64,000 nt of DNA from Squalus acanthias (Eukaryota). Position numbers and translations under genes: made by a program. Numbering within the stretch: the first letter of the stretch is position 1; each line of letters starts with the position of its first letter. This document shows, one piece after another, positions 5,841 through 51,000 of the stretch. The DNA lies in NCBI GenBank assembly GCA_030390025.1, contig CM059449.1, positions 13,764,001 through 13,828,000 on the forward strand, given 5' to 3'. The notes under the pieces are model-generated. The model was not told the DNA's origin. It worked only from the letters and a program-made list of their open reading frames with translations, and did no database searches.

Positions 5841-8322
5841 CAATACCCCTCAGGGATAATACAGTAGATGTGCTATAGAAACAGAAGTGTTAAATGCAGT
5901 TCCATCTTGGCATTACACATCACAGTTGTGCTCCAGACTCCAGGCTACCCTTAAGCAACATCATCAAACACCCTCGAATCTATAAGCATCTTGCTCAGAA
6001 TAAATAATTACAGGCAGGTTCTGCGGCTCTGCGTATTGGCCACAACAGAGCTCTCTCCAGTCGAATGGAGCGTACGGGCGCTGCTTAACTCCAATGTCGA
6101 AATCACATTCCGTTCGATAATTGGGTGCAATTTACGTATATATTTGATTGATGTGACACTTTATCAATACTTATGCGTCTTAATGCTCTTCCTCCTCCCC
6201 GCATCAACTGAGGGTTGATGTCAATATTCGTCACATTTTGCAGCCTGTCCTACTCAATCTTTCACCAGAAATTAAAACCGTGATATTCCTGACTTTCCAC
6301 GGGTTTCCCCTTCCTCCTTCAATCAACGGACTGCCACAAACCAAGCTCGGCATCGCCAAATCATTATCAATTGATTTATCTTTTCATTTCTTCTACCCGA
6401 CTCTCTCCCATGATGTTCTGCACTACAGCCCTTCGCCTTACAGCTCTCGAACAACTCTCTGATTCTCCAGTAATTGTTTGATCATTGGGAGGTGGGGGCG
6501 GTTATTTCTCACGGCTGTGAGCAGCTTTTTACACTGGCAGCACTCCTCATTTCAGCCAGTACAGTAATAATATGGACAGTGTAAGAAGGATCTTCTAGAG
6601 TTTCCAGCACCTGAACTATAGGTTGCCCTGCAGGAACCTTTGGGAATGATTCCACATACCCCGCCACCCACCCCCCCCCCCCCCCCCCCCCCACCCCCAG
6701 TTCTCCATGTTCATAGGTTTTACAATGTTGCTAGAAATTCGACCTCGGGGAGTCTTTTGGAACTGTTTACCGCAGAATATAAGTGAATGTTTTAGATGTT
6801 CGCGCTTTAATGGTTAATATGGCGTCTCCTTTAAAATAGTGGATTGAGGCATGCCTTAAACCCTAATACCGCTCAGATTAATTTCAGGTCTCCTCTCCCC
6901 GGGCGAATCCCAGTAAAGGACATTGTCAACAGACTCAGAAGAAACACATATCATGATTGATCTAAGTATGCATGTCACAGACGCGAATTGGATGAAATAG
7001 TTGTGGGTGCGTTCTTTTGTCAGCATCTACTCGACTTTGTGCACCGGTGCGGCTTAGTGTTGTTATGCGGGATATATCCTGGGTTTCAGAAGACCCGCTG
7101 GAAGATTTCCACGCTCAGTGACAGAATGGAGATTGTTTTTCGCCGCCTACAGCTATCTGAAGCTACAGGTGAAGGATCCAATCCCACCACACAGCATACC
7201 TGAATAGGATGGAGACTGAACTGTTCAAAGCTGAACCTCTCTAACGCATATCCATAAAATTAACCCAACACATTTATTATCAGGATGCTCCCGTCGAATC
7301 CTAAAATTGTGGGACTTTCTCTATTTAAGCATTAAATGCAGGACCCTTTGGGTAGAAGCTTCCATGCGACTATCCAACGCGAGTGTGGCTTATCGGGAAA
7401 TCGCGGCTGTACTGCGCAGGATATTGCTAATATTCGTGTCAATGGACAGAAAAATCAGGGGCAATATTCGCACGATTTTCCTATAAGCCACCTAGTGAGC
7501 GCGAGACCCAGAAAGTGGCGCTCGAAAATACCCGCTCAAACTTCCAAGGTAGATGCAGGAGTGGAAGGTTTTTGATAGTGCTTCCGTCTTCGTGCTTATC
7601 CAGCGCCAAACAGAATTAATCGTACCCGGAGATCTGTACTGTGGATTTATTTTGGCTATTATCTGCGTTGGAATTTTGCTGGCCAGAATTCGTCTTAAGT
7701 CGATCCTGGTTAAATTTATGTATTAATGGCAGTAGCTTACTGTCATAAAAAATAATAGCTCGGCATTCAGTGCACGCTTCACCTGGTACCACTTGCGGGT
7801 TTTTGGTTTAATTTGAGGAGGGTGTGGGGCGGGGGGGCTCAAAATAGTGCAAATAAAGACTTACTTGTAGTGCATTCATTACGGAATTCTAAACATATAC
7901 TGCCGCATACGCTTATTTAAACATGTTCAGTATTAGTAATGACAATAGTGCTGCATGCATCTTAAACACAATGACATTATAGAAATGGTGCAGTTCAATC
8001 GCGAATCAACACAGGACTTACTCACATTGTGGACTGGTACAGGATGCCAATTTCTTTAATGAAACTGACACTGAAGTCCACAGATGAAGCTCATACCAGA
8101 AGCGATCGAATCAAATATTTACAGGTTGGCATTTTATATTCAGTTAAGGTTAAATTTGATGTTTTGCAACCATTAGTGCCAAAGCGATTTCCTGGCGAAA
8201 TCGTCTCAACATTACCATAGCAGACTGCAAATAATTCCCGAATGGCTAAAAGCTGCAATTGAAAGTTACGCGGGTATTCGCTACATTGTACAATTAGAAC
8301 CAAGGAGGATAAATGAACTCAC

Positions 8323-8380
8323 CAGTGCACAGTGCAAAGGGAATCAGTTGCATGAAGGCAAATCGCTGGATGAATTTCAT
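8323..8380 (-). CDS. NKp30/NCR3-like gene A, exon 1 (signal peptide MKFIQRFAFMQLIPFALCT-G)
   Basis: ATG at 8380, 58 nt, consensus donor G|gtgagt in phase 1. Paralog of 44566-44623. Confidence 0.85.
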
Positions 8381-20626: not shown

Positions 20627-23600
20627 AGTGTCCCCCACCCTTCCACCTCCTCTAACCTAAAGGGGGTGAGTGTATATCAGGAGGCCCGGTGAGTATCTAA
20701 ACTCACTTTCGCGGGCTTTTGTTTGCTGAGGCTGGTCGGGAGCGGAGAGAGCCGAGGCCCGGTGCGTATCTAAACTCACTTTCGCGGGCTCTTTTTTGCA
20801 GAGGCTGTTGTCAGGAGCAGAGAGAGCCGAGGCCCGGTGAGAATCTAAACTCACTTTCGCGGGCTTTTGTTTACAGAGGCTGGTGTCGGGGGCGGAGAGA
20901 GCCGAGGCCCGGTGAGTATCTAAACTCACTTTCGCGGGCTTTTGTTTGCAGAGGTTTACCAATCTCAGACCGGCGGCGGTGTTCCAGAGCCACATTACGA
21001 TTCAAAACGTGACGTGGGCAGGAGGGAGCGGCTGATTGGGTGAGTACGGCAGGTTAGAATTTATACTACTTTATAGTTTGATAGTTAAGGTTCATAGTTT
21101 ATAAAGTTTCGAAGATCTTAATTTTGTGATTATAATTTCTAGTGCTAGTAACCAAGGGCCCTTGAGTAATTCATTTAATTGAGTGAAATTGGTGGTATTG
21201 ATTTGATTTAATTAAAGTTCAATTAATTAAAGGGTAAGTCATGGCAGGACAGCCCAGCCCCGTGTTGTGCTCCTCCTGCTCTATGTGGGAAATCAGGGAC
21301 CCTTCCGGTGTCCCTGACGAGCATGTGTGCGGGAAGTGTATCCAGCTGCAGCTACTGACAGCCCGCATTGCGGCGCTGGAGCTGCGGCTGGATGCATATT
21401 GGAGCATTTGCGATGCTGAGAACCTCGTGGATAGCACGTTTAGTGAGTTGGTCACACCGCAGGTGAAGGGTGTACAGGCAGGAAGGGAATGGGTGACCAC
21501 CAGGTAGAGTAGGAGGTGCAGGCAGGTAGTGCAGGGGTCCCCTGTGGCCATCCCCCTCTCAAACAGATATACCGCTTTGGATACTGTTGGGGGGGATGAC
21601 TTAGGGGAAGGCAGCAGCAGCCAACTTCCTGGCACCATGGGCGGCTCTGCTGCACAGGCTGGGAGGAAAAAGAGTGGAAGAGCTATAGTGATAGGGGACT
21701 CAATTGTAAGGGGAATAGATAGGCGTTTCTGCGGCCGCAACCGAGACTCCAGGATGGTGTGTTGCCTCCCTGGTGCAAGGGTCAAGGACGTCTTGGAGCG
21801 GCTACAGAACATTTTGGAGGGGGAGGGCGAACAGCCAGCTGTCGTGGTGCACATAGGCACCAACGATATAGTTAAAAAAGGGGATGAGGTCCTAAAAGCA
21901 GAATATAGGGAGTTAGGAGGTAAATTAAAAAATAGGACCTCAAAGGTAGTAATCTCAGGATTGCTACCAGTGCCACGTGCGAGTCTGAGTAGAAATAGGA
22001 GGATATTTCAAATGAATACGTGGCTAGAGGAATGGTACAAGGGGGAGGGATTCAAATTCCTGGGACATTGGAACCGGTTCTGGGGGAGGTGGGACCAGTA
22101 CAAACCGGATGGTCTGCACCTGGGCAGGGCCGGGACCGCTGTCCTAGGGGGAGTGTTTGCTAGTGCTGTTGGGGAGGATTTAAACTAATGTGGCAGGGGG
22201 TTGGGAACCTGAGCAGGGAGACAGAGGAAAGCATGTCAGGAAGGGACAGAAGATATGGAGTAAAAGGTAAAGTGTTAAATAAGGAAAAAGCAGGAAGTAA
22301 GTGTAGTAAAACACAATTGAAAGTTCTTTATCTGAATGCACGTACCATTCGTAACAAAATTGACGAGTTAACGGCACAAATAACTATGTATGGGTATGAT
22401 CTTGTGGCCATTACAGAAACATGGCTGCAGGGTGACAACGTCTGGGAATTAAATATGCCAGGGTATTTAACAATCAGGAAGGACAGGCAGGAAGGAAGGG
22501 GAGGGTGGTGGCTATGTTAATAAAGGAAGGAATCACTGTAATACAGAGAAATGATATTGGGTCAAAAGATTAGGATAATGAAACAGTTTGGGTAGAGATT
22601 AGGAATAATAAGGGGAAAAAAACAATGGTGGGCGTAGTATATAGGCCTCCTAATAGTTGCAACTCTGTTGGAAGAAGTATTAATCAGGAAATAGTTGGGG
22701 CATGTAATAAGGGAACAGCTATAATTATGGGGGATTTTAACTATCATATTAACTGGACAAATCAAATTGGGCAGGGCAGCCTTGAGGAAGAGTTTATTGA
22801 GTGTCTTAGGGATGGATTTCTTGAGCAGTATGTAACTGATCCTACAAGGGGGCAAGCAACCTTGGACCTGGTACTGTGTAATGAGTCTGGATTAATTAAT
22901 AATGTCATAGTTAAGGATCCCCTTGGAATGAGTGACCATAACATGGTTGAATTCCATATCCAATTAGAGGGTGAGAAGGTTGGTTCTCAAACAGGCATAC
23001 TGAGCTTGAATAAAGGAGACTATGATGGCATGAGAGCAGAATTGATTAAAGTGGACTGGGAAAATAGATTAAAGGGTAAGACGGTGCATGAGCAGTGGTG
23101 TTCATTCAAGGAGTTATTTTACAACTTTCAAAATAAATATATTCCACTGAGGAAAAAAGGGTGTAAAAGAAATGACAGCCATCCATGGCTAAGTAAAGAA
23201 ATTAAAGAAAGTATCCAACTAATAACAAGGTAGCCAAAGTTAGTGGGAGGATAGAAGATTGGGAAGTCTTCAAAAGACAAAAAAAAGTAACTAAAGGATT
23301 GATTAAGAAAGGGAAAATAGACTATGAAAAGAAATTAGCAAAAAATATAAAAACAGATAGCAAGAGTTTCTATAGTTATATAAAAAGAAAAAGGGTGGTT
23401 AAGGCAAACGTAGGTCCCTTAGAGGATGAGACTGGGAAATTAATGGTGGGAAACATGGAGATGGCAAAAATGCTGAACAAATATTTTGTTTCAGTCTTTA
23501 CGGTAGAGGACACTAAGAATATCCCAACACTGGACAAACAGGGGGCTCTAGTGGGGGAGGAGCTAAATACGATTAAAATCACTAAGGAATTGGTACTCAG

Positions 23601-30719: not shown

Positions 30720-31391
30720 TGTCATTTAATCCGTTTTTATTTTACAAGTAGCCCCTTTTTATTTCAAATCAATTCGACTTTTACCTGTAACATTAAAGAA
30801 CTATTTAAAAAATAACATTTACCTATACGAAGCATAAAGCTTAACTAATAGATAGCATCGAAGGCTTAGTTTGAAATATTTATATTTTAAAGCATATTGT
30901 CAAACGGCTTATAATATCTAAAACTTAAAAATTGCGAAACATCCTGCAATATTTAATCATTCTAGAATACATATTACAACAGGAAACTCAGGACATTCAT
31001 TATTTGACATCTGAACATCCCCGAGAGAATGCACCTGCACATGAAGGATGGACATCCTTCTCCCTTGGGACAGCAGGACTCAAAACTGAAAGCTACTGCT
31101 AAATATTTGTACTATGCTTGAAGCGTATGGTGTCCTGGAACAAAATAGTCATAAATACAAGACCGCGATTCGAATTATTATTATTCGTTCGAAAATCTCC
31201 CGAGCAATTAACTTTCACTGTTCGGCTCTGATTTACGGTTAAGGGGAGAACTTTTTAAGTTAAAATCGTCCGGAAATGATTCACAATCCCTCAAACTCCT
31301 TTTGTTTTTCGTCTGGTTTTGAAGGCGCTGGTGTCTCGACCATCTCTGGGTGCATTTTACAATTAAACAAGGAAGGATGACAGCTACTCAT

Positions 31392-31560
31392 TTAATCAAG
31401 ACAGCAACCTCTTACTCTCAGTTTCCAGACACGTTTACTGATTTCAAAAATTGCCTGATTGTTGACTGACTGAGTCTTGGTGCTGTGGGAATATGTATTC
31501 GTTCTGTTATGTTCGTGACAAGCCAGTAGCACTTCGATGGAGCAGCAATTCTGTAACTGC
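31392..31560 (-). CDS. Gene B probable terminal exon (QLQNCCSIEVLL...RVRGCCLD*); 3'UTR if the upstream TAA is real
   Basis: Pyrimidine-rich acceptor ttctcacttctcatgctccaacag|. Open for 55 codons in the phase-2 frame required by the preceding donor. Confidence 0.5.
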
Positions 31561-32012
31561 CTGTTGGAGCATGAGAAGTGAGAATACGATTAATAAATAG
31601 AATTGAACCTAGTCAATTGTTCGTGATTTTCGACTGTGCCGTTTATTGTTGTTGCAATGCATTTAGCCTCATGTAACTAGTATCACTGAACAAGGTGTAA
31701 AGAGGCAGCAAGGAACAGGTAAACGGGGAATTTGGTTAGAAGCAGTTGTTGCTAAACTGAAGTCGTCGGTAATAAAAATTGATAATGAATAATTAAACCA
31801 AGTTCCTTAGTTATATTTTATTTAAAAAAATATTACTATGCAAATTACTCTCAGCGTACACTCAGCTGTCCTGATGTCTGCCTTTAAAACAAATCACTTT
31901 AGCTCATATACCGTGCCCCTGGGAACATTGGTTGAGACATGCATCGTGTGAAGAGGCACCTTGTATTTCTTGGTATATGTTTGATTGCTTGCAGAGTTGT
32001 GCGAGATCGTAC

Positions 32013-32056
32013 CTGTGCAGTTAACTGTAGGTGTCCACGCCTTTCAGCTCCAAGCC
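32013..32056 (-). CDS. Gene B cytoplasmic exon 2 (GLELKGVDTYS*LH), second half of ITAM with in-frame TAA at 32021-32023
   Basis: Follows a 97-nt intron; acceptor ttgttaatag|, donor AG|gtacga. Joined with the previous exon it gives YTGL-x7-YS*L, the exact ITAM spacing. Confidence 0.75.
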
Positions 32057-32153
32057 CTATTAACAATGCAAGACATCCGTATTATTACAAACTCTTGTGT
32101 TAGAAAAAGGCGTATTTTAATTTATTCAGGATATTTTCGTTTATATATTTTAC

Positions 32154-32206
32154 CGTGTATGGAGAATCCACGTCAGTGTGATTGCCAGTTTCATTCTGTG
32201 AGACAC
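32154..32206 (-). CDS. Gene B cytoplasmic exon 1 (VSQNETGNHTDVDSPYT), first half of ITAM
   Basis: Acceptor ttatttcgctacag|, donor ACG|gtaaaa, 53 nt, phase 1-0. Continues the frame of the TM exon. Confidence 0.78.
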
Positions 32207-32358
32207 CTGTAGCGAAATAATGACGCCAAATAACCTTGAATAAATAAATTCCCAAAGAATGTACTTAGAGCAGTAACCTTTATAATTTTACAAGTACATC
32301 TACTTCATAAGGTTTCCGATTCTATGATCAGTCTGTTTCTCTGTCACTCTGTCTGTCT

Positions 32359-32761
32359 NNNNNNNNNNNNNNNNNNNNNNNNNNNNNNNNNNNNNNNNNN
32401 NNNNNNNNNNNNNNNNNNNNNNNNNNNNNNNNNNNNNNNNNNNNNNNNNNNNNNNNNNNNNNNNNNNNNNNNNNNNNNNNNNNNNNNNNNNNNNNNNNNN
32501 NNNNNNNNNNNNNNNNNNNNNNNNNNNNNNNNNNNNNNNNNNNNNNNNNNNNNNNNNNNNNNNNNNNNNNNNNNNNNNNNNNNNNNNNNNNNNNNNNNNN
32601 NNNNNNNNNNNNNNNNNNNNNNNNNNNNNNNNNNNNNNNNNNNNNNNNNNNNNNNNNNNNNNNNNNNNNNNNNNNNNNNNNNNNNNNNNNNNNNNNNNNN
32701 NNNNNNNNNNNNNNNNNNNNNNNNNNNNNNNNNNNNNNNNNNNNNNNNNNNNNNNNNNNNN
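32359..32761. other. Assembly gap (403 N) flanked by TCTG/TATC simple repeats, within the gene B intron between TM and cytoplasmic exons
   Basis: N run. Confidence 0.99.
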
Positions 32762-32899
32762 TCAATCTATCATATATCTATCTATGATACAAGTTAGTGA
32801 GTGTTAACTATACAATATGCCATGACATTTCTCAAAAATGAAGTCTAAACCCAACAATGTGCATCAATGGCCATGTAAACTGCCACTGGCCGACAGCTA

Positions 32900-35110
32900 C
32901 AACAACAATAACAGCTTTTTAGCGACTTTAACGCAGTAAAACGTCCCAAGGCGCTTCACATGAGTGTTATAAAACAAAATTTGACACCGGACCACATAAG
33001 GAAAAATTAGAGCAGATGGAGGCAGGTTTTAATGGGTGTCTTAAAAGGAGGAAAGTGAGGTAGCGAAGCAGAGAGATTTAGGCAGGGAATTCCAGAGCTT
33101 AGGGCCTAGGCAACAGAAGGCACGGCCACCAATGGTTGAGTGATTATAATCAGGGATGCTCAAGAGGGCAGAATTAGAGGAGTGCAGATATCTCGGGGGG
33201 TTGTGGGGCTGAAGGAGATTACAGAGATAGGGAGGGGCAAGGCCATGGAGGGATTTGAAAATAAGGATGAGAATTTTTAAATTGAGGCTTTGCTTAACCG
33301 GGAGTCAATATAGCGAGCACAGGGGTGATGGGTGAACATGACTTGGTGCGAGTTAGGACACGGGCCCCAGAGTTTTGGATGACCTCAAATATACATAGGA
33401 TAGAACGTGGGAGGCCATCCAGGAGTGCATTGCAATAGTCAAGTCTAGAGGTAACAAAGGCATGGATGAGGGTTTCAGCAGTAGACGAGCCGAGGCGGGT
33501 TGGAGTAGAGCAATGTTATGGAGGTGGAAAAAGGCGGTCTTAGTAATGCCGTGGATATGTGGTTGGAAGATCATTTCAGGGTCAAATATAACACCAAGGT
33601 TGCAAACAGTCTAGTTCAGCCTCATGCAGATGCTAGGAAGAGGGATTGATTCGATGGCTAGGGAACAAAGTATGTGGCAGGGATCCAAGGCAATGACTTC
33701 GGTCTTCCCAATATTTATTTAGAGGAAATTACTGCTCATCCAGAACTGGATGTCGGACAAGCAGTCTGACAATTTAGAGACAGTCGAGGTGCAAAAGAAG
33801 TGGTGGTGAGGTAGAGCTGGGTGTTGTCAGCACACATTTGGAAACTGACGCTGTGTTTTCGGATGATGTCGCCGAGGGGCAGCATGTAGATGAGAAATAG
33901 GAGGAGGCCAAGGATAGATCCTTGGGGGACACCCAGAGGTAACGATGCAGGAGCGGGAAGAGAAGCCGTTGTAGGTGATTCTCTGGCTACGATTAGATAG
34001 ATAAGAATGGAACCAGGCGAGTGCAGTCCCACCCAGCTGGACGATGGTGGAGAGGCGTTGGAGGAGGATGGAGTGATTAACCGTATCAAAGGCGGCAGAC
34101 AGGTCAAGAAGGACAGGGAGGGATAGTTTACCTTTGTCACAGACACAAAGGATGTAATTTGTAACTTTGATGAGAGCCGTTTCGGTACTGTGGCAGGGGC
34201 GGAAACCTGATTGGAGGGATTCAAACATGGAGTTGCAGGAAAGATGGGCACAGGTTTGGGAGGTGACAACACGGTCAAGGGCTTTGGAGAGGAAAGGGAG
34301 GTTGGATATGGGGCAGTTATTTGCAAGGACGGATGGGCCAAGGGTTGTTCTTTGGAGGAGGGGGTTGTTGATGGAAGATTTGAAGGAGAGAGGGACAGTA
34401 CCTGAGGAGAGAGAACCGTTAACAATATCAGCTACCATGGGAGCCAGAAAAGGAAGTTGGGTGGTCAGCAGTTTAGTAGGAATAGGGTCAAGAGAGAAGG
34501 AAGTGGGTCTCATAGACAAGATGAGCTCGCATGAGGGGAGATCGGAGAGAAACTGGAGAAATGTACAAGTCAGGGCTAGGGCAGGGGGGAACCTTAGAGG
34601 AAGTTTGGGCCGGTGGGCTAGGGGAAGGAAGTGAAGTGGCAGAGGCAGATGATCAGATGATCTCAATCTGAGAGACAAAGAAGTCCATGAGCTCCTCACA
34701 CTTGTTATTGGAGGTGAGAGTGGAGGAGACAGAGGAGAGGGGTTTAAGAAGACGGTTTGCAGTAGAGAATAGAAGCCAAGTGTTATCTTTGCATTCCAGA
34801 ATGATCTTGGAATAGTGAGCAGTTTTGGCAGATGTGAGCAGGACCCGATAGTGCTTTATGTGGTCCAGCCAGATCTGGCGGTGAATGGCTAAACCAGTTG
34901 TCCGCCATATCTGTTCAAATCTGCATCTCTTGGACTTAAGGGAGCGGAGAGGGTTGTACCGGGGGAACAGCCAGGGTGAGAGTGACTAATGGTTTTAATA
35001 GGGACTAGGGCATGAAAGGTGGTGGTGAGCGTGTGGTTGAGCAGATCAGGAGCTGCAGAAGTGTCATAGTGAATGGAGGGCCAAAGGCTGGAAAGTTGGG
35101 ATTATGTAAG
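32900..35110 (-). mobile_element. L2-clade LINE, 3' ~2.2 kb
   Basis: ORF 33827-34699: LDPIPTKLL...[10 protein letters not shown]...[14 protein letters not shown]...[11 protein letters not shown]. Confidence 0.92.
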
Positions 35111-35289
35111 TACAGTTGTTAGTACGGTTATTTGAAGTAGTAGGTATTGGCAAATACGTGCTTATAGCAACGTGCTAGACGTAGTGGGAAGGTTTACTGG
35201 GTTTGCGATTGTTAGCGTTGTGCTAGGAACATTGTAAGTTTACAATTTCTACAGATATAACAATGGAGGAAAAATGGCACTGGTCGTAA

Positions 35290-35835
35290 CATTTTGTGAC
35301 ATGCAAAATAAATTTAAAAGAACACGAGCATTGCAAATGTTACAACCCTGTTCAACAAAGGGGAGAGGGATAAATCTGGTAATTACAGTCCAGTCAGTCG
35401 AACAACGAGTGGTGGGAAAACTACGAGAGACCATTGCCAAGGACGTAAATAATTCTCACTTGGAGAATATGGGACTGCGAACATGGATTTCTTAAAGGCA
35501 AATCGTGTCTGGCTAACCTGATTGGGTTATTTGTTGAAGTAACAGAGAGGGTTGATGATGGCAGCAGATGTTGTATTTGATAAAGACTTACTCGGAAAAT
35601 AGAAGCACATGGTATTAAAGGGATGGTGGTAACTTGGGTACATCATTGGCTACGGGATTGGAGGCAGAGAATAGAGGTGAAGGGATGTTTTTTTCTGACT
35701 GGAGAGAAGTATGCAGTTGGGACCACCAGAGGTCGTTATTAGGAACACTGCTTTTCTTGTGATATTCAAAGAGCCGGGACAGACACGACGGGCCGTATGG
35801 CTTCCTTCTGATCTGTCAGGTTCTATGATTCTATG
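35290..35835 (+). mobile_element. Degenerate CR1 RT fragments
   Basis: Remnants of ANVTTLFNKG..NYSPV and QHGFLKGKSCLANL; ttctatg tail. Confidence 0.7.
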
Positions 35836-37061
35836 TTTATGATGCCACTACACATAACAATCAGCAATTCTTCCCCCAGATGAAATCTCTCTGTTATGTT
35901 TAAGACTAAGTATTAGCAGCAGTGGGATTCTTCCTGCCTCGTGTCACCTTGACCAGTGAATGTCAGAGGATGATATTCGATATACATTCCACAACAATAA
36001 ATGATCATTTCAACTATTTCTGTCGAAAGTCAAAGAATTGTTGAACCTGATGACCAATGTCAAAAGTTAAAAAAGCAAAAACTAAAAAAAAAATACTCTG
36101 GTTTTAATACACCAATGCACTTTACAATCTTCTCTATAGATTCTAAGATATGCCATTGCAACACTTGAATATTGCATTTTTCAATTTTTGTTTCTTAATC
36201 AGCGAATCATCGAATCATAGAATAGTACAGCATAGAAGGAGCCCATTCGGCCTATCGAGTCTGCGCCGGCTCTTTCGAAGAGCAATCCAGTTAGTCCCAC
36301 TCCCCCCGCTCTTTACCCATACCACTGCAATTTTTTTCTCCTTCAAGTATTTGTCCAATTCCCTTTTGAAGTCTACTATCGAATCTGTATCCACCACCCT
36401 CTCAGGCAGCGCATTCCAAATCCTAACCACTCGTTGCATAAAAAATGTTTTTCCTCATGTCGCTTTTGGTTCTTTTGCCAATCACCTTAAATCTGTCCCC
36501 TCTAGTTATCGACCGTTGGAAACAAATCCTCCTTATGTACTCTATCTGAACCCTTCATGATTTTAAACACATAAATATAGAAACCAAATTCGTTTTATGG
36601 TCTTTCTCATTTCGGTTGTTCTGTTGGCTACAATATACGTGAGTTATACTGTAGAAATGTAATGATTAATCACCTCATTTCTGCTTCAATGGGTATAAAT
36701 TCGACTTGAGGGGCAGTGCAAAACGGGTCTTGAAAGAAAATCGGATGGGGTAAAACGGGCTGCCGATTCACTATCGCTCGTTTGCACGGCCGTTGAAGAG
36801 GAATTGTTCCCAGTTATCCGGGCATTTCATCGAATAGATGGATGCTTTATACCGCGTACAGGCAGGGTTAAAGTTTACAGTTAAACTCGCCTTTTTACAA
36901 TGAATGATTCGTTAAACCGTGCATAATTGCAATGTCAATTATACTTGCAGCTTCATTGTGTATCGGTGTTGGACACGACAATAATTTAAATGAACCATTA
37001 TAGCGTGCATTATCGGACAGTGACCCTTAGATGGCGATATTCTATTTACAAAGATACTTAC

Positions 37062-37181
37062 CATTGCATTTCCATTTCAGTTTGTAGGCTAGTATTATCA
37101 TGATTACGACAGCCAGCAAGGTTAGTACGGTCCACAGTACAGGTGTTATACAAGTCTCCGGGCCCTGGAATGCTGTCCTTC
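37062..37181 (-). CDS. Gene B stalk/transmembrane exon (RTAFQGPETCITPVLWTVLTLLAVVIMIILAYKLKWKCN)
   Basis: Acceptor ttatttcag|, donor G|gtaagt, 120 nt, phase 1-1. About 21 hydrophobic residues followed by a basic stop-transfer. Same length as, and similar to, the exon at 549-668. Confidence 0.88.
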
Positions 37182-37343
37182 CTGAAATAATGAAATGAAA
37201 TCAGTGTTTTTGTTTCTATTCCCAGATTAAAGCTTAGGAACGAAGGTGGCTGTCCTACACAAGGCAGTACAAATATTGTCTAATGAATCTCTGTATAAAC
37301 AGCAAGGTGTAAAAATATTGGCGAACGTGCTTTCATTTTTATG

Positions 37344-38103
37344 GGCCCGAAAATTAAACCTAATACGCGAGAGTACGCACTGTGTACTCTCGCGTCTAAG
37401 ATCCCGAATTGCCGGTTTCCTGCATGCACTGCGCATGCGCGGGAAACCGGCACTTCGTGAATTCAAAAGGGGGCGGTTCCTATTTGAACCGCGTGCGCAC
37501 TACAGGCTGTGCGCACGCAGTGCACTTAGTTATTTTTTCAGCTTTGAACGAGCAGGTAAGTGGTGAAGAGTTTACACACAAAGAAAGCAGGCGTAGGACC
37601 CCCTTTTAACAAGGTAAGTAGTTAATTAAGTGTTATTTTTAATTTTTTTCAACAGGTTTATCTTTTTAGAGACTTTAAAGAAAGGTAAGTTTATTTTTAT
37701 AACTTTTAAAGAGATTTTAAATGTTTTCAAAAATTTAATTTTTTGTTTAAAGTGGTTAATTTATTTAACTATACTTATTTTATTAATGTGATGGCTTTTT
37801 TTAATTTAATTGAGGTTTAGCTGTTCTTTTGGGGGGTGTAGTATTCATAGCTTTGACAGCTCTTGCCGTCAAAACTATGAATGAAAGATGGTGTGCTCCC
37901 ATTGGCTCCACCTGAATCACGTGATCCCAGAGCTCGCACGAACTAATTGCGCCTCTGGGTCACGCAAGCACTGCACGGTTCCAACAGAGAGAGCCTTTGA
38001 AACTAAAGTTCGTGTGGGCCTGGAGCAAAAAGGTAGGCGCGGAGTGCGATATCACGGGGAATCCTTACCCCCGCGGGAACCATCCATGATTAATTTCTGG
38101 GCC
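37344..38103. mobile_element. Same TIR element, copy 2 (inverted relative to copy 1), in the gene B V-TM intron
   Basis: GGCCCGAAAATT...AATTTCTGGGCC; flanks atg/att; body is the reverse complement of copy 1. Confidence 0.88.
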
Positions 38104-38178
38104 ATTAGCACCTTGTAACCAACAGACATGTCTGTTACATTGATACGATGTTTTTTGGAAAGCATTAAATCGACTCCT

Positions 38179-38424
38179 GCCTCATTTGCAGTTTGGTCTC
38201 ATTCCCGTCCCTTTCACACTATCCCCATTCCCTCATTGCGGCGGTTAAAGGGACCTAAGTCTGTCCCTATCCCATCAGAGATTTTGGTAAGCGTTCTCCT
38301 AGTGTCAACCAAGTAAGCGAGTGGCTGCCCCCATCGCGGAGGGAATCGCATTTTAGCCCAACCCTGTCTTCGGCGATGTACACATTCTGCACTTTTCGCT
38401 GGGTTATGACCAGGTCTGTGAACC
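38179..38424 (-). pseudogene. Decayed second VJ-type V exon in the V-TM intron of gene B
   Basis: Phase-1 acceptor catgcag|, then LVITQ...VGLKC...LTW. After an internal deletion and frameshifts it reads KISDGIGTDLGPFNRRNEGMGI and RDGNETKLQMR, aligning with NISDLTEKDSDTYYCRIDLMGV and RDGNGTKLEVR of the intact exon. Donor is dead (C|aggagt). Confidence 0.8.
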
Positions 38425-38640
38425 CTGCATGATCAACCCCCTCCCCAACACTTACAGTGCCCCAGCTGACAGAGATTAGCTCATTTAAAACAGACCCGAA
38501 GTCGAACGGGGGCTGTTCTTGCTCAGTATAACTCGTATACTGCACCCGTATTTGGAAAAATGTTTTTAACATGTTGAATGGTACGCTTCATGAAATTTTG
38601 GCGTGACGGAAAATATGAGAAGAAAAGAGAATAAAAAGGG

Positions 38641-39084
38641 AAAAAAGAAAGACTTGCATTTATATAGCGCTTTTCACGACCACCGGACGTCCCAACGCGC
38701 TTTAAAGCCAATGAAGTACTTATTGAAGTGCAGTCACTGTTGTAATGTAGGAACCGCGGCAGCCAATGTGCGCACAGCAAGCTCCCACAAACAGCAACGT
38801 GATAATGATCAGGTAATCTGCTTTATTTAGCGACGTTTATTGAAGGATAAATATTGACCAGGACACGGGGAGGACTCTCCTGCTCTTCTTCCAAAGAGTG
38901 CCGTGGGTTTTTTTTACGTTCAGCTGAGAGAGCAGACGGGGCCTCGTCCGAAAGACGGCACCTCCGACAGTGCAGCACTCCCTCAGCCTAGATTTTTGTG
39001 CTCATAGTACCTTGGAGTGGGATTTGAATCTACCAACCTTCTAACTCACAGGCGAGAGTGCTACCCACTGAGCCACGGCTGCCA
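38641..39084 (-). mobile_element. Near full-length tRNA-derived DeuSINE (SacSINE1-like) with L2-type 3' tail
   Basis: Head cagccgtggctcagtgggtagcactctcgcctgtgagttagaaggt; central ttgctgtttgtgggagcttgctgtgcg; tail gcgctatataaatgcaagtctttcttt shared with L2 3' ends at about 26500 and 27210. Confidence 0.85.
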
Positions 39085-39570
39085 TGGTAGCTAGGGGGCC
39101 CTGTCAGATATTATATGAACAGATAATATTCTTGCTCTTAGCCAAAAGGCCGAGAAGCCAAATAGTATCACAACATTTAAACCTTACACTTGAGTAAATG
39201 TATGAATTTGTCAGTGGTGTCCACAATGGTGATGTTTAGGCGGTTGTAAATACAGCTATAATGTAGGAAAATGTAAGAATGTACGTTATGAACAGTCCCT
39301 CCACTTTGACTCTCTTGTGGTGAAAACACATGGCGCAATAATAACGCATGCCAGTTAGGTATGAAATTCCTCTGCCCGCTATTTAAAGTCAGACATTTAT
39401 TTATTTACAACAAATGAAATCCGATGTTAAAATTTGCGTTTGGGATTGGCAAACTAATGTGACAATATCTGATTTTGCCTCACCTGCTTTACTTCTGTCA
39501 CACACACACACAACGCTATCTGTGCTGAGAGAGATGCTCCACTAGGCTGCAGTTTGTTGAGTATTATAAA

Positions 39571-40320
39571 CATGATGCGGAGATGCCGGTGTTGGACTGG
39601 GGTGGACAAAAGTGAGAAGTCGCACAACACCAGGTTATAGTCCAACAGTTTTATTTGAAATCACAAGCTTTCGGAGCGACTGCTCCTTCGTCAGGTGAAG
39701 TAAAGCAATACAAAATCGACAAAGCATATATAGATAGAGAACAATGCATGTGTAACTTACAATGGCAGACGTATGAACGGACACCGCACAACAATCGCCA
39801 GGCAGGAGGGTTGCCTCCCAGTCGGGGAACACTTCAGCAGCCAGGGGCATTCAGCCTCGGATATGCGGGTAAGCGTTCTCCAAGGCGGCCTTCGAGATAC
39901 ACGACAGCGCAAAATCATAGAGCAGAAACTGATAGCCAAGTTCCGCACTCATGAGGATGGCCTCAATCGCGATATCGGGTTCATGTCACGATACAGAACG
40001 TGACTTGACATCATGGCCGGTCTTCCCAGGTGTTTTTTTTTTTTAAAAAAAGGCTAACACAAGAACCTACACAGATTGACAGGATATGCAGCCAGCAGGT
40101 GGTTTGACACGTTGGACCCCCTGGGACACATCTCATTGTCTTGGCTATGCTCTTTGATGTAGGAAAGATTTGAATATATTTTGTCTGTGTTTAAATTGTG
40201 AATTCTGGGAGATTCTCTCACTGCTAAACTTACCTGACGAAGGAGCGAACTGCTCCGAAAGCTTGTAAAATTAAATAAATCTGTTGGACTATAACCTGGT
40301 GTTGTGCGACTTCTCATTTT
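39571..40320 (+). mobile_element. Truncated Penelope-like element with GIY-YIG endonuclease C-terminus and inverted terminal repeats
   Basis: ORF 39773-40003 (MNGHRTTI...PVGEHFSSQGHS...EQKLIAKFRTHEDGLNRD) is typical of the PLE GIY-YIG domain. Same terminal repeat as the hairpins; TSD tattataaaca. Confidence 0.88.
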
Positions 40321-40464
40321 TATTATAAACAAGGCATTGCACTGACATGCGGTAAACTAATACTACAACAATTAAGACAGAGAAAACGGAATCACACCAA
40401 TCTTACAACTGTAAAGTTGCAACAAATTTTTATCAATCAAGGACTGTTTGTTCTTGCAACTTAC

Positions 40465-40806
40465 GCCTCACTTCCAATTTGGTGCCATTTCCGTCTCTCG
40501 CTCCTACTCCCATTAAGTCTATCCGGCAGTAATAGGTGTCTGAGTCTTTCTCCGTCAAGTCGGAGATATTAATGAATATTCTGTTGTTGAAAAATGACTC
40601 GCTGTCCGACCTCTCTAGCCGTTCTCCATAAAACGGACTGTCGTCCAGTTTGTACCCATTTGGTTTACCCCGTGTCCATTGAGCTGAGCCGATCAGAGAT
40701 AGGTTTCCTTCAGAAGCCAGGGCACAGTTCAGTGTCACCGACTCACCTTCTGTTCCAGTTATAAAGGGAGGGAACTGGTAAACGGTGGTATTCGCCATCC
40801 TGCCTG
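40465..40806 (-). CDS. NKp30/NCR3-like gene B, germline-joined VJ-type Ig V domain exon
   Basis: Translation TVYQFPPFITGTEGESVTLNC...IGSAQW...YGERL...ISDLTEKDSDTYYCRIDLMGVGARDGNGTKLEVR has the canonical B-strand Cys, C-strand Trp, DxxxYYC and a J-like GNGTxLxV. It resembles human NKp30 (IGSVTW, CRVEVLGLGVGTGNGTRLVV; recalled, not searched). NAGNAG acceptor ttcag/cag (start 40806 or 40803), donor C|gtaagt, phase 1-1. Confidence 0.92.
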
Positions 40807-41189
40807 CTGAACAATGACATTTTAACTTTAAACCGGATAAATACTGCACTCGACACCTGTTTAACGCTGATCAGTTTTTTTTTACCTTAAATGCAATCAG
40901 GCGGTACACATCATATAAATACAGAGATCAAAAGGGAAACTTGAAAATGCTGCAAATACACAAGTGCTTTAAACTAAGGGGCACTTTGTAAATATACAAA
41001 TAATCAGAGTAAGTAATTTGATCCAAATGGATAGACTAAATAAAAAACTAAGTTGAGGATACCAACATTCAAGGAATCCAAATTGCATTAAATAAAAATC
41101 TGGTATACAGAAATAATTAAATAATAATTGGGAGTAAGGGGGATACTAAACTAAAACACATACATATACAACATAAGTAGATAGACGTT

Positions 41190-43512
41190 TAAGTAAGATG
41201 ATTTGAAAGCTGAGACCCGTTGCCTGCAATTCCTGTGCCATGTGGGAATTCCAGGATGCTTGGTGTATCCTGGATAACCATGTGTACAGGAAGTGCCTCC
41301 AGTTGCTCGGTCTTGAGTTCAGGGTTTCTGAGTTTGAGGAGCGGCTGGAGTCAGAGGGCAGGGCACACGGAAGGCTGATAATTTCCTGGCGCGCACGTTC
41401 CAGGAGGTGATCACCCCGCAGCTACAGAGAGCGCAGGGGAATAGTAAGAGGGTGGCCATCGGCAGGATAGGAAGAGGCAGAGAGAGCAGGGATCCTCCGG
41501 GAGTGTGACACTCTCAAACTGGTTATCTGTGCTGAATGTGAGTGCGACGACACCTTGGGGGAGTGCAGTCCGTAGCACATCCACGGCACTGTGGGGCAAA
41601 TGACTGCACAGGTGGGGCACAGCAAAATCGAGAAATGCAGTGGTCATAGGGGATTCGATAGTCAGGGGAATAGACAGGCATTTCTGCAACCGTCTACGTG
41701 AGTCCCGATGGTGTGTTGCCTCCCTGGCGCTTCGAGGGTGCAGAACATTTTGAGGGGGAAGGGCAACAGCTAGATGTTGTGGTCCATGTGGGAACCGATG
41801 GCATAGGAAGGAAAAGCGTTGAGGTCCTGCAGTCAGAGTTTCGGGAGCTCGGGAGGAAACCAAAGAGCAGGTCCTCAAAGGTAGCAATCTCTGGATTACT
41901 CCCAGTGCCACGTGCTAGTGAGTATCGGAATAGTCGGGTAAGATAGGTTAACACGTGTCTGGAGAAATAGAGCAGGAGGGAGGGCTTCAGACTTCTTGGA
42001 CATTGGGACCAGTTCTTGGTGGGGGGGCGCTGTACAAGCTGGAAGGATTGCATCTCAACAGAACTGGCTCCAGTATCCACGTGGGAAGGTTAACTAGTAC
42101 TGTGGGGGAGGGTTTAAACGGAATTTGGCTGGGCGATTGGCACCAGGATGAAGCATTAGAGAGAAGAAACAAGGTGCACAGGGGATAGGAGAGGCAAATA
42201 GCATTAGAGTAAAGAATAGTTCATAAATAGGAGGGATCAGACATGGGGAAAAAGCTAGGCAGACTAAGATGGGTATGGAGTGCATGTGCGTAAGTGCACG
42301 TAACGTGGTAAATAATGTCTATAAAAGGAAATCAGAGGTGCAAAGAGAGAGTATGAGAACAGATTAACGGCTAACATAAAAGGGAACCCAAAAGTCTTTT
42401 ATATACACATAAATAGTAAAAGGGTAGCTAAAGGAAGTGTGGGGCAGATGGACCTTAAAGAAGTTATTCTTGTGGAGGCAGAGGGCAGTGCTGCGGTAGT
42501 AAATGAATACTTTGCAGCTGTCTTCACTAGAGAAGAGGATGGTGCCAAGGTAGCAGTGAATGAGGAGGCAGTAGCGATATTGGATAGGATACAAATAGAT
42601 AAAGAGAAGGTACTTTAAAGGTTGGCAGTCCGCAAGGTAGAAAAGTTACCCGGTCCAGCCGGGATGCATCCCAGGTTGCTGAGGGAAGTAAGGAACTAAA
42701 TTGAGGAGGCTCTGGCCACAATCTTCCAATCCTCTTTAGATATGTGGGAGCGGTGGCAGAGGACTGGAGGATTGTAAATGTTACACCCCTGTTTAAAAAA
42801 AGGGAGAGCGATGAACTCGGCAATTACAGCCAGTCAGCCTATCATCGGTAGTGGGGAAACTTTTAGAGATTTATCAAAATGGGACAAAATAAATTGGCAT
42901 TTGGGAAAGTATGGGCTAATAAATGAAAGTCAACATGGATTTGTTAAAGGCAAATTGTGTTTGACTAACTTAATCGAGTTCGTTCGTGAAGTATCATAGA
43001 GGGTTGATGGGCATAGTTCGGTTGATGTGTATGTGGGCTTTCAGAAGGCATTTGACAAAGTGCAACATAATAGACTTGTTAGCGAAATTAAAACCCATAG
43101 TATTAAAGGGACAGTGGTAACATGGGTACGACATGGGCTAAGGGACAGAAATCATGGAGTAGTGGCGAACGGTATTTTTTCAGACTGGAGGGAAGTATAC
43201 AGTGGTGTTCCCCAGAGGTCGGTATTAGGACCACTGCGATTTTTGATATATATTAATGATCTGGACTTGGGTATACAGGGCATAATTTCAAAGTCTGCAG
43301 ATGACAGGAAACTCGGAAATGTAGTAAACAATGAGGAGGGTAGTAACAGACTTCAGGAGGACATAGACAGACTGGTGAAATGGGCAGACACGTGGCAGAT
43401 GCAATTTAACGCAGATACGTGTGAAGTGATACATTTTGGTAGGGAGAATTAGGAGAGGCAATATGAAGTGAATGGTACAATTTGAATGCGGGTGCAGGGA
43501 CAGAGAGACCTG
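41190..43512 (+). mobile_element. Old, internally deleted CR1 in intron 1 of gene B
   Basis: Esterase remnants (HVGTDG, SGLLPVPRAS) and RT remnant ORF 43027-43452. Confidence 0.85.
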
Positions 43513-44565
43513 CGAAGTCGGGATCGAGTCAGTCCGGAAATCAGTAGTTCACAAAACATTCGCCTAAATGTGATTTAATCGGTCCTGCATTGTTTATGTA
43601 GCTATGTCAGGTCTATAATCTGTCTGAATTTAAGGTGTCTTTTTCGAGCTGCGCTTCAATTACTTTACAATTAAAATACACAAAATTAATCCCAACATAA
43701 GTATTACCAGCAACATACATGTTCTGTGAATTGCTTACAGTTTCTGCAGATGCCTGGACAGTTTTGTTTAATTTCTTGTACCGTTAGAGCGGCTACCTAC
43801 GATAAGTGGCCGGTGCAACTGGCCCAATTTTAAAATATATCAGAGAAAAACAGTTGCAGCCTTTAATAACAATGCAGTAAGAATTCTATCTGTTTGCGAC
43901 ATGGTTGAGTGCATTCAGAAAGATTTTTTAGAAACTGTGAAATGTACGATGAACTCTTCACGAACATGCTTACCAAGTCGCTTACAATTATTGTTCAGTG
44001 AAATTCCTGCTCCACAAATGTAGGAAACCCAATGGAATTAATTCAGATCAATGCCCAGCTATGAGGTGCCAAATAGAAAGAAAGCATAAACTGATCGAAT
44101 ATTATCTTTGGAGAGTACCGAGCATAAAGTTAACTCAAAGCAAACAAGCTAACATCCATTCGAAAGCGACACAAATGATGCAAAAAGAGATAATTAGGAA
44201 TGCTGAAATCCTGATAACTGTCTAAGCATAATGACACTATCACTTCACATTTTGCGAAATAACCTTACCCTTATGTGTTACAGGGAAGTCCCAGTAAGGT
44301 AAGATCGGTTGGCACGTTTGCGACTATATCATCTTAATAGTACATTCACCGGTCATTTCCAAAACTCTAATTGTGTGCAAAGGATTCAATTTACATTTAT
44401 TTCAATATTATATTTAAAAATATATAGTATTGTATAGTAACGACGAGAATAAGTTAACTAGAGCATTACAGAGTAGCGAGTCAGCTAACTTAACCAGAAT
44501 ATCATATAGTACCGACTGGTACAAGTAGAGCATTCTATAATAACGAATAATATAAGCTTACTAAC

Positions 44566-44623
44566 CAGTGCTTAGCGGAAAGAGAATCAGCTGCATAAAA
44601 TGAATTTGTTGAATTAAAACCAT
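44566..44623 (-). CDS. NKp30/NCR3-like gene B, exon 1 (signal peptide MVLIQQIHFMQLILFPLST-G)
   Basis: ATG at 44623, 58 nt, ends in phase 1 at G|gttagt. Clearly paralogous to the 58-nt leader at 8323-8380 (shared FMQLI, terminal TG and upstream cgtgtgcac). Confidence 0.85.
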
Positions 44624-46175: not shown

Positions 46176-48019
46176 AGATTCTTAGTTTCATAGGAACAGG
46201 AGGAGGCCATTTAGCCCCTCGACCCTCTTCCATCATTCAATGAGATCACGGCTGATCTGCGACTTAACTCCATATACTCGCCTTTGGCCCATATCCCTTA
46301 ACACCTTTGGTTATCAGAAAGCTATCAATCTCCGATTTAAAATTAACAATTGACCCAGCAGCAATTGCCGTTTGCGGAAGAGAGTTCCAAACTTCTACCA
46401 CCCCTTGTCTGTAGAAGTGTTTCCTAATTTTTAGCCCCCTAGCCCTAGACTTCCCAACCAGTGGAAATAGTTTCTCTCTATCTACCCTATCTGTTCTCCT
46501 TAATATCGTGAAAACTTCGATCAGATCACCTTCTAAATTATCGGAAATACAACCCTAATTTGTGTAATCTCTCCTCGTAACTTAACCCTTGAAGCTTACA
46601 TTTTAAATGCAGATTAAATTGTATCTTTCAGATGAAATGATAACACAAACTATGAACAAGCACCGAAAGGATTAAGAATGAGATAGCAAGGTTTATTGAA
46701 AAGCACGGTATATTCTTGGATAAGGGTACAAGGGTGCAACACGTAACATCTTAACAAAAGCTAATGTTGCCATTTAGAAAGGTATGTAATGTGTACTGTA
46801 GAACTGCCTAACATTTGCTGAATTAGTGTTGTTAGTGCCTTGGCAGCGGCGTTGGACTAATAAGAAAGAGCAAGTAGTAGGCTTTATTGATGCCTGTCTT
46901 GGAACTGCCTTTAAGCAATAAAGAGAGTGAATCTCAGGGTCGATATCCAACCTGTTCTAATCTCAACCGAAGCATTTAGGGAGGTCAAATAGACCACTGA
47001 TAAACCTCATGGTTCTCGTGCCCCTGCTTTTCAAAATGAACAACGTCTTCTTGAGCGAAGTAGCGGGGGACGATAGTCAATCACCATTGAAACACTTGAA
47101 ACACAGGAATTGCGAGATGCAAAAAGACTAAGGTCCATCTAATTCGCCTTCTGCCATCCTGGTAGTCGCATGATACAATGATAATGGAGTTTTTGACTAG
47201 TCATAAACATCCATGTCCAGGTATTAGTCTACAACAGACCCAGACATGACACGAGGAAAACCCCGGTGGTGGAGAGATTTGGGAGCCATAGGTCCAAACT
47301 CCAAAGTTATTTTTTTCCTCCCAAGCCTTACACTTACCACACGTCATCTCTCCAATTACTCAAATACTGTATCCAAAATGTAATTTTGTGAAATAAATCT
47401 CTCTAATATGTATTTGCATGAGTCAATACTAACTGCTTTCACCATATCCTAGGGAGTCTGTTCCATAGATTGACCACTCGTTCACTGAAATGTTACTTTT
47501 GAGTTTAACCGCAGGCCATGTCCTCTGGTTCTACTCTGCTGGACAAGATATAATAGCGTGTCATGCTCTAAATTGTCTGGTCCCTTTAGAATCTTAAAAC
47601 CAGCCATCTTATCACCACGCCACCTTTTCTTTTTCAATTTACATCTCGCTCCTCATAATCCAATCTTTCCAGCTCCTCAATCATTCTGGTTGCTCTCTTC
47701 TGCATCCTTTCAATGGCTGCATTATCCTTCCTGCAGTGCTTTTTCATGATGCTTACCTGAGTGCAGCTGCTGTAATGGGATGAAAACGTGGATGGAGAAA
47801 CCACCGTACAGCTGAGCGTAATATAGTGTATAGAACATAACGTACACATTTCTATAAGAACAGAAGAAATAGGAGCAGGAGTCGGCCGTTTGGCCCTTCG
47901 AGCCTCCTCCGCCATTCAATAAGATCATGGCTGCTCTTCTACCTCATCTCTACTTTCCTGCACTATCCCCATGCCCCTTGAGACCCTTAATATTCAAAAA
48001 CCTATCGACCTCTGTCTTG

Positions 48020-51000
48020 CGAGAGTTTGGAGCTACTAAAGCAGCGGGAGCCCAGGAGATTGCGAGACCTCGGCGGTACTTAAAGCAGCGGGAGCCCAGG
48101 AGAGCGCGAGACCTCGGCGGTACTTAAAGCAGTGGGAGCACAGGAGTGAGAGATCGGCGGTACTTAAAACAGTGGGGCCCAGGAGAGCGCGAATCCTCGG
48201 CGGTACTTAAAACAGCGGGGGCCCAGGAGAGCGCGAGACCTCGGCGGTACTTAAAACAGTGGGGGCCCAGGAGAGCGCGAGACCTCGGCGGTAATTAAAA
48301 CAGTGGGGGCCCAGGAGATCGCGAGACCTCGGCGATAATTAAAACAGTGGGGGCCCAGGAGAGCGCGAGACCTCGGCGGTAATTAAAACAGTGGGGGCCC
48401 AGGAGAGCGCGAGACCTCGGCAGTAATTAAAACAGTGGGGGCCCAGGAGAGCGCGAGACCTCGGCGGTAATTAAAACAGCGGGAGCCCAGGAGAGCGCGA
48501 GACCTCGGCGGTAATTAAAACAGCGGGAGCCCAGGAGAGCGCGAGACCTCGGCGGTAATTAAAACAGTGGGGGCCTAGGAGAGTGCGGCTACAACAGACC
48601 GGTGAGTGTGAAGAAGTAAAAAGTAATCGAAGTGTGAGGTCTCCAGAAATCAGGTAAGTGATTGGTTGGTGAGTATTTCTATATTTCTCACTTTTTCTCC
48701 AAACTTGGGCATCTAAATTTAAGTGCCTTGGTGTAGATTAAAAGATATATGTGTTTCAAATTTGAAAACGAATTAATTAATTAATTGAGATGGGAGACAA
48801 GGCAATGTGTTGTTGTTGTTGCATGTGGGAGCTGGTGGACACCATTGAGGTCCAAGGCGACCACCTCTGCAGCAAACGTTGGCTGCTCGTGGAACTTCGG
48901 CTCAGAGTTGATGAGCTGGAGTCCGAGATTCAGATACTGCGACACATTAGGGAGGGGGAGCGTTACCTGGACACTAAGTTCCAGGAGGCAGTCACACCCA
49001 CTAGAGTAATTACTTCCAATTTGGCCCATGGTCAGGGACAGGAGGGTGTGACTACAAGCGAGGCAGGCATTGGGATCCAGGAGGTAGTGATGGAGGAGCC
49101 CTTGGCCTTGTCTAACAGGTCCGAGATTCTTCTCTGTGTGGATGAGGGCAGGGACTGCAGGGAGGATGAGCAATCTGACCACAGCACCGTGGTAGAGGGA
49201 GCCATTCAAGTGGGGGGAGTAAAAAGAAATGTTGTAGTGATAGGGGACAGTATAGTTAGGGGGATAGATACTGTTCTCTGCAGCCGAGAGTGTGAGTCCC
49301 AAAGTGCCAGGATTAAGGACATCTCCTCTGGCTGGAGAGAAACTTGGAGTGGGAGGGGGAGGATCCAGTTGTCATGGTCTACGTATGCACCAATGACATA
49401 GGTAGGAAAAAGAAAAAGGTTCTGCTGAGAGATTATGAGCAGCTAGGGGCTAAATTAAAAAGCAGAACCACAAAGGTAATAATCTCTGGATTACTACCTG
49501 AGCCACGAGCGAATTTGCATAGAGTAAATAAAATCAGAGAAATGAACGAGTGGCTAAGGTAGTAATCCAGAGACTGTTGTGGGAGAAATGGGTTTCGATT
49601 TGTGGGGCACTGGCACCAGTACTGGGATAAGAGGGAGCTGTTCTGTTTGGACGGGCTTCACTTGAACCATGCTGGGGCGAGAGTCCTCGCGAATCGAATA
49701 ACTAGGGCTGTAGAGAGGGCTTCAAACTGAATAGTGGGGGGGTGGGGGGGAGGTGGCGGAGGATCCAGGTGAGCGGGAATTCAAAAAGTCAATGAGAAAT
49801 GAGAAAGCAATAGAGCAGGATAGAGATGGGGGAAATAACAACCAGAGTGTGACAGGAAGGGACAGAATGTTTAAAAATAAGAATGCAAAAGAAAATGGGG
49901 CCAAAACAAGAAGAAATGGTAAAAAGACAAAGTTAAAAGCTCTATATCTGAATGCACGCTGCATTCGTAACACGATAAATGAGTTGACGGCACAACTAGA
50001 TACAAAGGGGTATGATCTGATCGCCATTACAGAGACGTGGTTGCAAGGTGATCAGAGCTGGGAACTGAATATTCCAGGGTATTTGACAATTCAGAAAGGA
50101 TAGACAGAAAGGAAAGGGAGGTGGGGTGGCTTTGTTGGTAAAGGATGGGATCAGTGCAGTGGTGAGAAGTGATATTGGGTCAGAAGATCAAGATGTAGAA
50201 TCGGTTTGGGTGGAGATAAAAATAATGAAAGGAAAAAGTCGCTGGTGGGCATAGTCTACAGGCCCCCGAACAGTAGCAATACTGTTCGACAAAGTATAAA
50301 TCAACTAATAATGGAGGCCTGTAAAAAAGGTGCGGTAATAATCATGGGTGATTTTAATCTCCATATTTATTGAACAAATCAAATTGGCCATGGTAGCCTT
50401 GAGGAGGAGTTCCTAGAGTGCATCCTGTATAGTTTCCTAGAACAGTATGCAATGGAACCAACCAGGGAGCAGGCGATCTTGGATATGGTACTATGTAATG
50501 AGACAGAATTAATAAATGATCTCATAGTAAAGGATCCTCTAGGAAAGATTGATCATAGTATGGTTGAATTTCAAATTCAGTTGGTGGGTGAGAAAGTTGT
50601 ATCTCAAACCAGTGTCCTGATCTTAAACAAAGGCAATTACAATGGCATGAGGGCAGAACTGGCTAAAGTGGACTGGAAAAATAAATTAAAGAGTAAGACA
50701 GTTGCAATGCAGTGGCGGACATTTAAGGAAATATTTCATAACTCTCAACAAAATATATTCCAGTGCGAAAGAAAGATTTTAAGAGAAGGGAACACCATCC
50801 GTGGCTAACTAAGGAAGTAAAGGATGGTATCAAATTGAAAACGAAGGCATACAATGTTGCCAAGATTGGTGGGAGACCAGAGGATTGGGAATTTTTTTTA
50901 AACAAGCAAAGGATGACTAAAAAAATAATAGAGAGAGAAGATGAATTATGAGATTAAACTGGCAAGAAAAATTAAAACAGATAGTAAGAGCAGCTACAGG

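Follow-up and report, generated by a model that had tools for sequence, protein, structure and literature searches.

In a 64,000-nucleotide stretch of the Squalus acanthias genome (hereafter the window), we find a receptor gene, gene B, whose sequence places it in the shark NKp30/NCR3 family and whose predicted cytoplasmic exons spell an ITAM-type tail, the second YxxL of which is broken by a TAA codon. The reading that we favor, and hold to be probable though well short of assured, is that the TAA arose as a genuine nonsense change and would deprive a membrane receptor of Syk/ZAP-70 docking, making it either signaling-dead or a decoy. What merits follow-up is less the stop than the ITAM-type tail on a shark NKp30, the more notable of the two; the stop is in itself ordinary, being a single nonsense codon in one member of a fast-evolving immune family.

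The window is rich in CR1/L2-type repeats and holds two related minus-strand genes, gene A at about 550-8380 and gene B at about 31000-44623. Gene B was rebuilt as five GT-AG exons in frame (leader, V, TM, C1, and C2, with phases 1, 1, 1, 0, and 2), with a predicted product of 202 residues ahead of the TAA and, the TAA aside, 606 coding nt free of lesions. This recovered the gene model and the broken ITAM of the original prediction, with GT-AG sites throughout and a second motif interrupted at +2 by the stop.

44566-44623, minus strand: gene B leader exon, 58 nt, with the ATG at 44623 and a phase-1 donor
40465-40806, minus strand: gene B V exon, a VJ-type Ig domain of the NKp30/NCR3 family, with Cys, Trp, DxxxYxC, and GxGTxLxV intact
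37062-37181, minus strand: gene B stalk and TM exon, with an uncharged 19-residue hydrophobic core
32359-32761, no strand: 403-N assembly gap within the TM-C1 intron, with a TCTG/TCTA-type microsatellite on its flanks
32154-32206, minus strand: cytoplasmic exon C1, with the first ITAM tyrosine, the end ...DVDSPYT, and a phase-0 donor
32013-32056, minus strand: cytoplasmic exon C2, reading GLELKGVDTYS, stop, L, H, and then a CAG/GTACGA donor
32021-32023, minus strand: TAA at +2 of the second YxxL, a direct sequence reading in one assembly
31642-31685, minus strand: candidate last exon 1, with the best pyrimidine tract and 14 phase-2 codons, its stop overlapping AATAAA at 31647 (prediction only)
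31080-31134, minus strand: candidate last exon 2, with 18 open codons in phase 2 and poly(A) signals at 30957 and 30763-30730 (prediction only)
8380-8323, 4292-4014, and 668-549, minus strand: leader, V, and TM exons of gene A, a second NCR3-like paralogue

Several lines of evidence assign gene B to the NKp30/NCR3 family. Its V exon matches the Pfam V-set domain (E value of 8.7e-10), and the four best PDB matches are all human NCR3 (9fww, 3noi, 3pv6, and 6yjp; E value of about 7e-11), the next family following at 1.4e-7. Identity is 67 to 73% to ten shark NCR3-like proteins, with 73% to nurse shark NCR3 (QTT61901.1), and the exon encodes what is characteristic of the family, a single-exon, non-rearranging VJ-type Ig domain with a J-like GxG. 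Furthermore, a 24-row tree of V domains, drawn open, places gene B inside a 13-row shark NCR3-like group with a support of 91/83. The leader shows 58% identity over 24 amino acids to that of the Heptranchias model P0036/P0168 by tblastn, and the TM segment, whose core has a mean Kyte-Doolittle value of 2.7, shows 52% identity over 29 amino acids to that of the A-type model P0168. No MHC marker was seen in the window.

The charged TM arginine of the mammalian activating NCR3 is absent from gene B, and human NCRs are described as coupling to adaptors via a TM Arg/Lys (PMC6514059). A central Arg/Lys is likewise absent from the shark relatives compared, so that this trait separates the shark from the human forms and does not argue against the membership of gene B. 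The V domain shares 68 to 75% identity with six ITIM-tailed relatives, which share 57 to 77% among themselves, and we conclude that it has not decayed; this fits a young allele but also continued function, and to that extent speaks against the signaling-dead reading.

The tail is where gene B departs from its relatives. Together, C1 and C2 encode the first half-motif YTGL, completed by C2, then a 7-residue spacer, the second tyrosine, the stop, and a retained Leu ahead of the donor. An ITAM consists of two YxxL motifs 6 to 12 residues apart (PMC3576117), a definition from which gene B as assembled deviates by the TAA in its second motif. Of the ten close shark relatives, three partial models with no tail were left out; in the remaining seven, no tail carries an ITAM (0/7) and six carry a strict ITIM (6/7), with tyrosine motifs of the YAKV/YATI type, the seventh (Heterodontus) sharing these tyrosine motifs but lacking the -2 residue. 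Among 22 database proteins scanned, the ITAM pattern was matched once, in a distant two-domain protein of Scyliorhinus. This protein (P0049; Scyliorhinus canicula XP_038671255.1) has two V domains and its ITAM-pattern match near the C terminus, in a model with no obvious TM segment. Taken at the level of sequence, these comparisons suggest that gene B is an activating member of a paired activating/inhibitory set, with an ITAM in its own tail.

How often such an arrangement arises by chance was estimated on Markov resamples. The pattern sought was a spliceable ITAM-like arrangement, allowed to have a stop in the second motif and chosen after inspection of the data; it came up 20 times in 1,000 resamples of 30721-32358 and 12 times in 300 of the longer 30721-37061, which reaches up to the TM exon. 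This frequency of 2 to 4% weakens the signaling-dead reading and bears on an alternative that we think rather unlikely, in which the stop is old or fixed, or C1 and C2 are not a decayed gene B ITAM at all, the single YxxL being the normal end or the true tail lying in the N gap or elsewhere, with a likeness that is partly chance. Consistent with it, the 403-N gap lies in the TM-C1 intron and could conceal an exon, the retained Leu and donor carry no information on age, and no relative with the gene B tail was found. Indeed, the search based on the TM exon for an orthologous tail gave one candidate and no match, C1 and C2 gave nothing under an E value of 0.7 against the collected proteins (blastp-short), C1 with intron read-through gave no PDB match, and a degenerate C2 pattern was found in the window only at its own locus and in none of the metagenome contigs. 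An Atlas search with the nurse shark homolog returned a named NCR3-like cluster with no tails given. No intact-tail orthologue was found either, so that only the motif points to a sense ancestor, which also weakens the signaling-dead reading. Against this alternative, C1 and C2 are both compatible in phase and frame with the TM exon, and the 7-residue spacer and the Leu after the stop are exactly those of an ITAM. Outside the N gap, the splice filter let through no hidden exon that would keep the frame, and tblastn detected no tail exon of ITIM type in the window.

Kinlein et al. 2021 is reportedly the main paper on the shark NCR3 family. In a literature survey of which that paper was not part, shark NCR3 tails were undescribed in the titles and abstract openings found, and likewise in passages of PMC12227049, PMC10751288, and PMC11599192. 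This negative result is no proof that an ITAM form of shark NKp30 is unpublished.

Turning to the stop, the minus strand at 32029-32018 reads TAC AGT TAA CTG, exactly as first reported, with the TAA at 32023-32021. The rebuilt five-exon model also returns the predicted distance of 8 nt between the end of the stop and the C2 donor at 32013, whose score against the U1 consensus is 7/9, as well as the predicted product of about 202 amino acids. The substitution had been proposed to start from CAA, GAA, or AAA; all three are indeed one step away, but so are TCA, TTA, TAC, and TAT, and the only transition is from CAA. Overall, 79 of the 1,818 single substitutions possible in the gene B coding sequence (4.3%) would create a stop.

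Could the TAA be a base error of the assembly, the gene in fact encoding an intact ITAM-bearing NKp30? We consider this decidedly unlikely. The TAA is the sole lesion in gene B, one substitution away from sense in a single assembly, and if the base accuracy of the assembly were near Q30 the posterior probability of an error would reach 21 to 57%, a range that would weaken the signaling-dead reading; at Q40 to Q50, it would drop to 0.3 to 12%, which favors a natural nonsense change, both ranges resting on assumed priors of 2 to 10% for a natural lesion. CR1-type open reading frames of 367 to 407 codons in the window argue, mildly, against a high indel error rate. A null allele and a sequencing error, both of which the original prediction listed, are supported as options. 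A search of sequencing runs with the words of 30721-32358 gave five DNA rows from two samples with a share of 0.72 to 0.77 and four more rows at 0.05 to 0.07, with no RNA run among the rows listed. In four runs (X1, X5, X6, and X8) compared with 31880-32340, no contigs were placed, possibly as an effect of filtering, and this result is uninformative on the codon, its presence, or its expression.

The original prediction spoke of a recent signaling switch, but recency does not follow from the retained Leu and donor. With the mutation rate of the epaulette shark, 7e-10 per bp per generation (PMC10587355), and assumed generations of 2 to 10 years, four neutral bases would all survive 50 Myr with a probability of 0.93 to 0.99, a figure that comes from a different species and is indicative only. 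With so low a rate, the retained Leu and donor carry no information on the age of the stop.

The fate of the transcript depends on the 3' end of gene B, for which an open downstream exon had been proposed. Open phase-2 acceptors do exist, but there are two of them (31685 and 31134), and C2 may instead be terminal, with AATAAA at 31822. NMD is triggered inefficiently by stops less than 50 to 55 nt before the last intron (PMC6675935), and the predicted escape would fit this rule only with 32013 as the last junction or with C2 as the terminal exon. Escape of the gene B mRNA is therefore plausible if C2 is the last exon or one exon follows, but not necessarily if two do; our literature search found no test of the 50- to 55-nt rule in sharks. 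Splicing around the stop was considered as a rescue and rejected: the two GT sites in C2 upstream of the stop match the U1 consensus at only 2/9 and 3/9 positions, versus 7/9 at 32013, and C2 skipping or intron retention would also lose the second tyrosine motif. The run-on frame of C2 holds a later YxxI 14 residues on, past the stop, of a kind expected by chance.

What would the truncated tail do? The predicted product carries a single cytoplasmic YxxL, as hemITAM receptors do, and the original prediction had likened it to Dectin-1 and CLEC-2, citing acidic residues before the motif. Such residues are present at -3 and -5 only and do not make up the hemITAM triad: positions -2, -3, and -4 are S, D, and V, with one acidic residue in three. 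CLEC-2, Dectin-1, and CLEC9A have acidic residues at all three of these positions, and mutation of either tyrosine in the FcRγ ITAM abolishes signaling or cuts it by >95%, an added DED restoring it (PMC3576117). FcRγ, whose YTGL likewise follows one Asp at -3, fails as a hemITAM, and we predict on this ground that gene B would not signal through Syk, an argument drawn from mammalian proteins in chicken DT40 cells. We therefore judge it highly improbable that the remaining YxxL acts as a hemITAM of the CLEC-2/Dectin-1 type, with receptor dimers bridging both Syk SH2 domains, even though one YxxL with Asp at -3 and -5 is left and NKp65 provides a precedent with acids spread over four residues (PMC3576117). 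The hemITAM receptors named in that paper are, moreover, C-type lectins, unlike gene B, a type I Ig receptor.

Alternatively, the stop may turn an activating receptor into an inhibitory one, phosphorylated SPYTGL recruiting SHIP-1 or SHP-1/2, which seems unlikely to us. The ITIM-like SxYxxL noted earlier is genuine insofar as SPYTGL fits the consensus, but the stop did not create it, the motif being present with or without the TAA. Serine at -2 is the weakest ITIM variant, and the related inhibitory paralogues mostly have two tyrosine motifs, not one. In support of such a switch, the ITIM consensus is given as V/I/S/LxYxxI/V/L, and the single-tyrosine tail of DNGR-1 recruits SHIP1 (PMC12669754). 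Singly phosphorylated ITAMs can also recruit SHP-1 or SHIP-1 and drive inhibition (PMC5557797), so that "dead" could prove to be "weakly inhibitory," and the remainder of gene B is intact. By this analogy, weak inhibition by the truncated product is possible. A literature check gave no confirmation that the first half of the DAP12 ITAM, too, matches the ITIM consensus, and this point carries no weight here.

We return to the signaling-dead reading, which draws on the >95% loss seen in FcRγ upon removal of either tyrosine, on the gene B triad with one acidic residue in three, and on the lack of a charged TM residue, unlike human NCRs. The proposed sequence of events is as follows. C1 and C2 would be spliced to the TM exon over a 4.9-kb intron that holds the N gap, and the ancestral codon would have been sense, most simply CAA (Gln), the sole transition. 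The mRNA would evade NMD and yield a 202-amino-acid protein. SH2 domains read the hydrophobic residue at +3, and the terminal Tyr-Ser, having none, would fail in tandem-SH2 docking. Rescue appears improbable, as the YxxL has no triacidic context and the uncharged TM segment would recruit no CD3ζ, FcRγ, or DAP12. In this reading, the activating member of a paired activating/inhibitory cluster would be reduced to a null or, at best, to a decoy that still binds ligand.

Gene A, whose V domain shows 46% identity to that of gene B, has a J-like segment without GxG and a domain with an extra Cys; its tail lies outside the window, and its best matches (Heptranchias and Pristiophorus) end in paired inhibitory-type tyrosine motifs. 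The only long open phase-1 acceptor for its V exon is at 4292, within sequence that matches the coding of the gene B A strand, so that the exon starts E-I-Q-S-V-T-L and about 16 N-terminal residues are lost. The Heptranchias P0036/P0168 and Pristiophorus P0017 models share this domain start, which suggests that NKp30-like receptors with a shortened V domain form a conserved lineage. Gene B itself (44623-37062, minus strand) has a mosaic look: leader and TM are at 58% and 52% identity to P0168, and the V domain is at 42% to P0168 and at 68 to 75% to the ITIM-tailed NCR3-like group, which suggests exon exchange or a rapid divergence of V in the A lineage.

Two inverted repeat pairs, each about 91% identical, are probably young retroelement copies (9908-12179/56866-54554, 2.3 kb; 15519-16288/38107-37340, 0.77 kb), and the 38107-37340 copy sits in the V-TM intron of gene B. 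A short MITE-like palindromic element is present in four copies that are 82 to 97% alike (281-482, 1762-1991, 39570-39703, and 40222-40324), in introns of genes A and B. GC-rich tandem arrays at 48019-48587 and 20681-20954, with units of about 44 and 74 bases, adjoin CR1-type elements.

If the ITAM-type tail is confirmed in cDNA or in other sharks, the NKp30 family would gain an activating member that needs no adaptor and has inhibitory partners, which bears on how NK/T-cell receptor signaling was wired in early jawed vertebrates. We also entertain, as a very unlikely scenario, an adaptor-free ITAM-bearing NKp30 paralogue that was paired with ITIM siblings of near-identical V domain and was flipped from activating to inhibitory by one fixed nonsense change, its ligand-binding domain staying under selection. 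A fixed stop together with an inhibitory tail would make this a case of receptor polarity changed in nature by a single base, and one that is easy to test.

Among known systems, the closest to gene B are the shark NCR3/NKp30 proteins (QTT61901.1; Heterodontus XP_067865596.1; Heptranchias XP_067829801.1; and the Mustelus, Scyliorhinus, and Chiloscyllium models), which share with it the single-exon VJ-type V domain, a similar leader, an uncharged TM segment, and a tandem cluster with a paralogue. Their tails have no similarity to the tail exons of gene B, which spell an ITAM. The intron after YT in gene B is presumably shared with FCER1G. Judging by the primer sequences in PMC3576117, the ITAM of FcRγ opens with the YTGL and the -3 Asp that gene B also has, whereas gene B has its second YxxL cut at +2, an Ig ectodomain, and no TM Asp. 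CLEC-2, Dectin-1, and CLEC9A/DNGR-1 resemble the predicted truncated tail in their one YxxL and differ from gene B in their triacidic motif and C-type lectin fold. Human NKp30 (NCR3), the best solved-structure match to the V exon, uses a TM arginine and the borrowed ITAMs of CD3ζ/FcRγ, whereas gene B has an uncharged TM segment and the motif in its own tail (PMC6514059). Finally, most of the mouse strains examined carry NCR3 only as a pseudogene, a precedent for the loss of NKp30 at the level of a lineage (PMC6514059); unlike mouse Ncr3, gene B retains an intact ectodomain and TM segment and has lost only the end of its tail.
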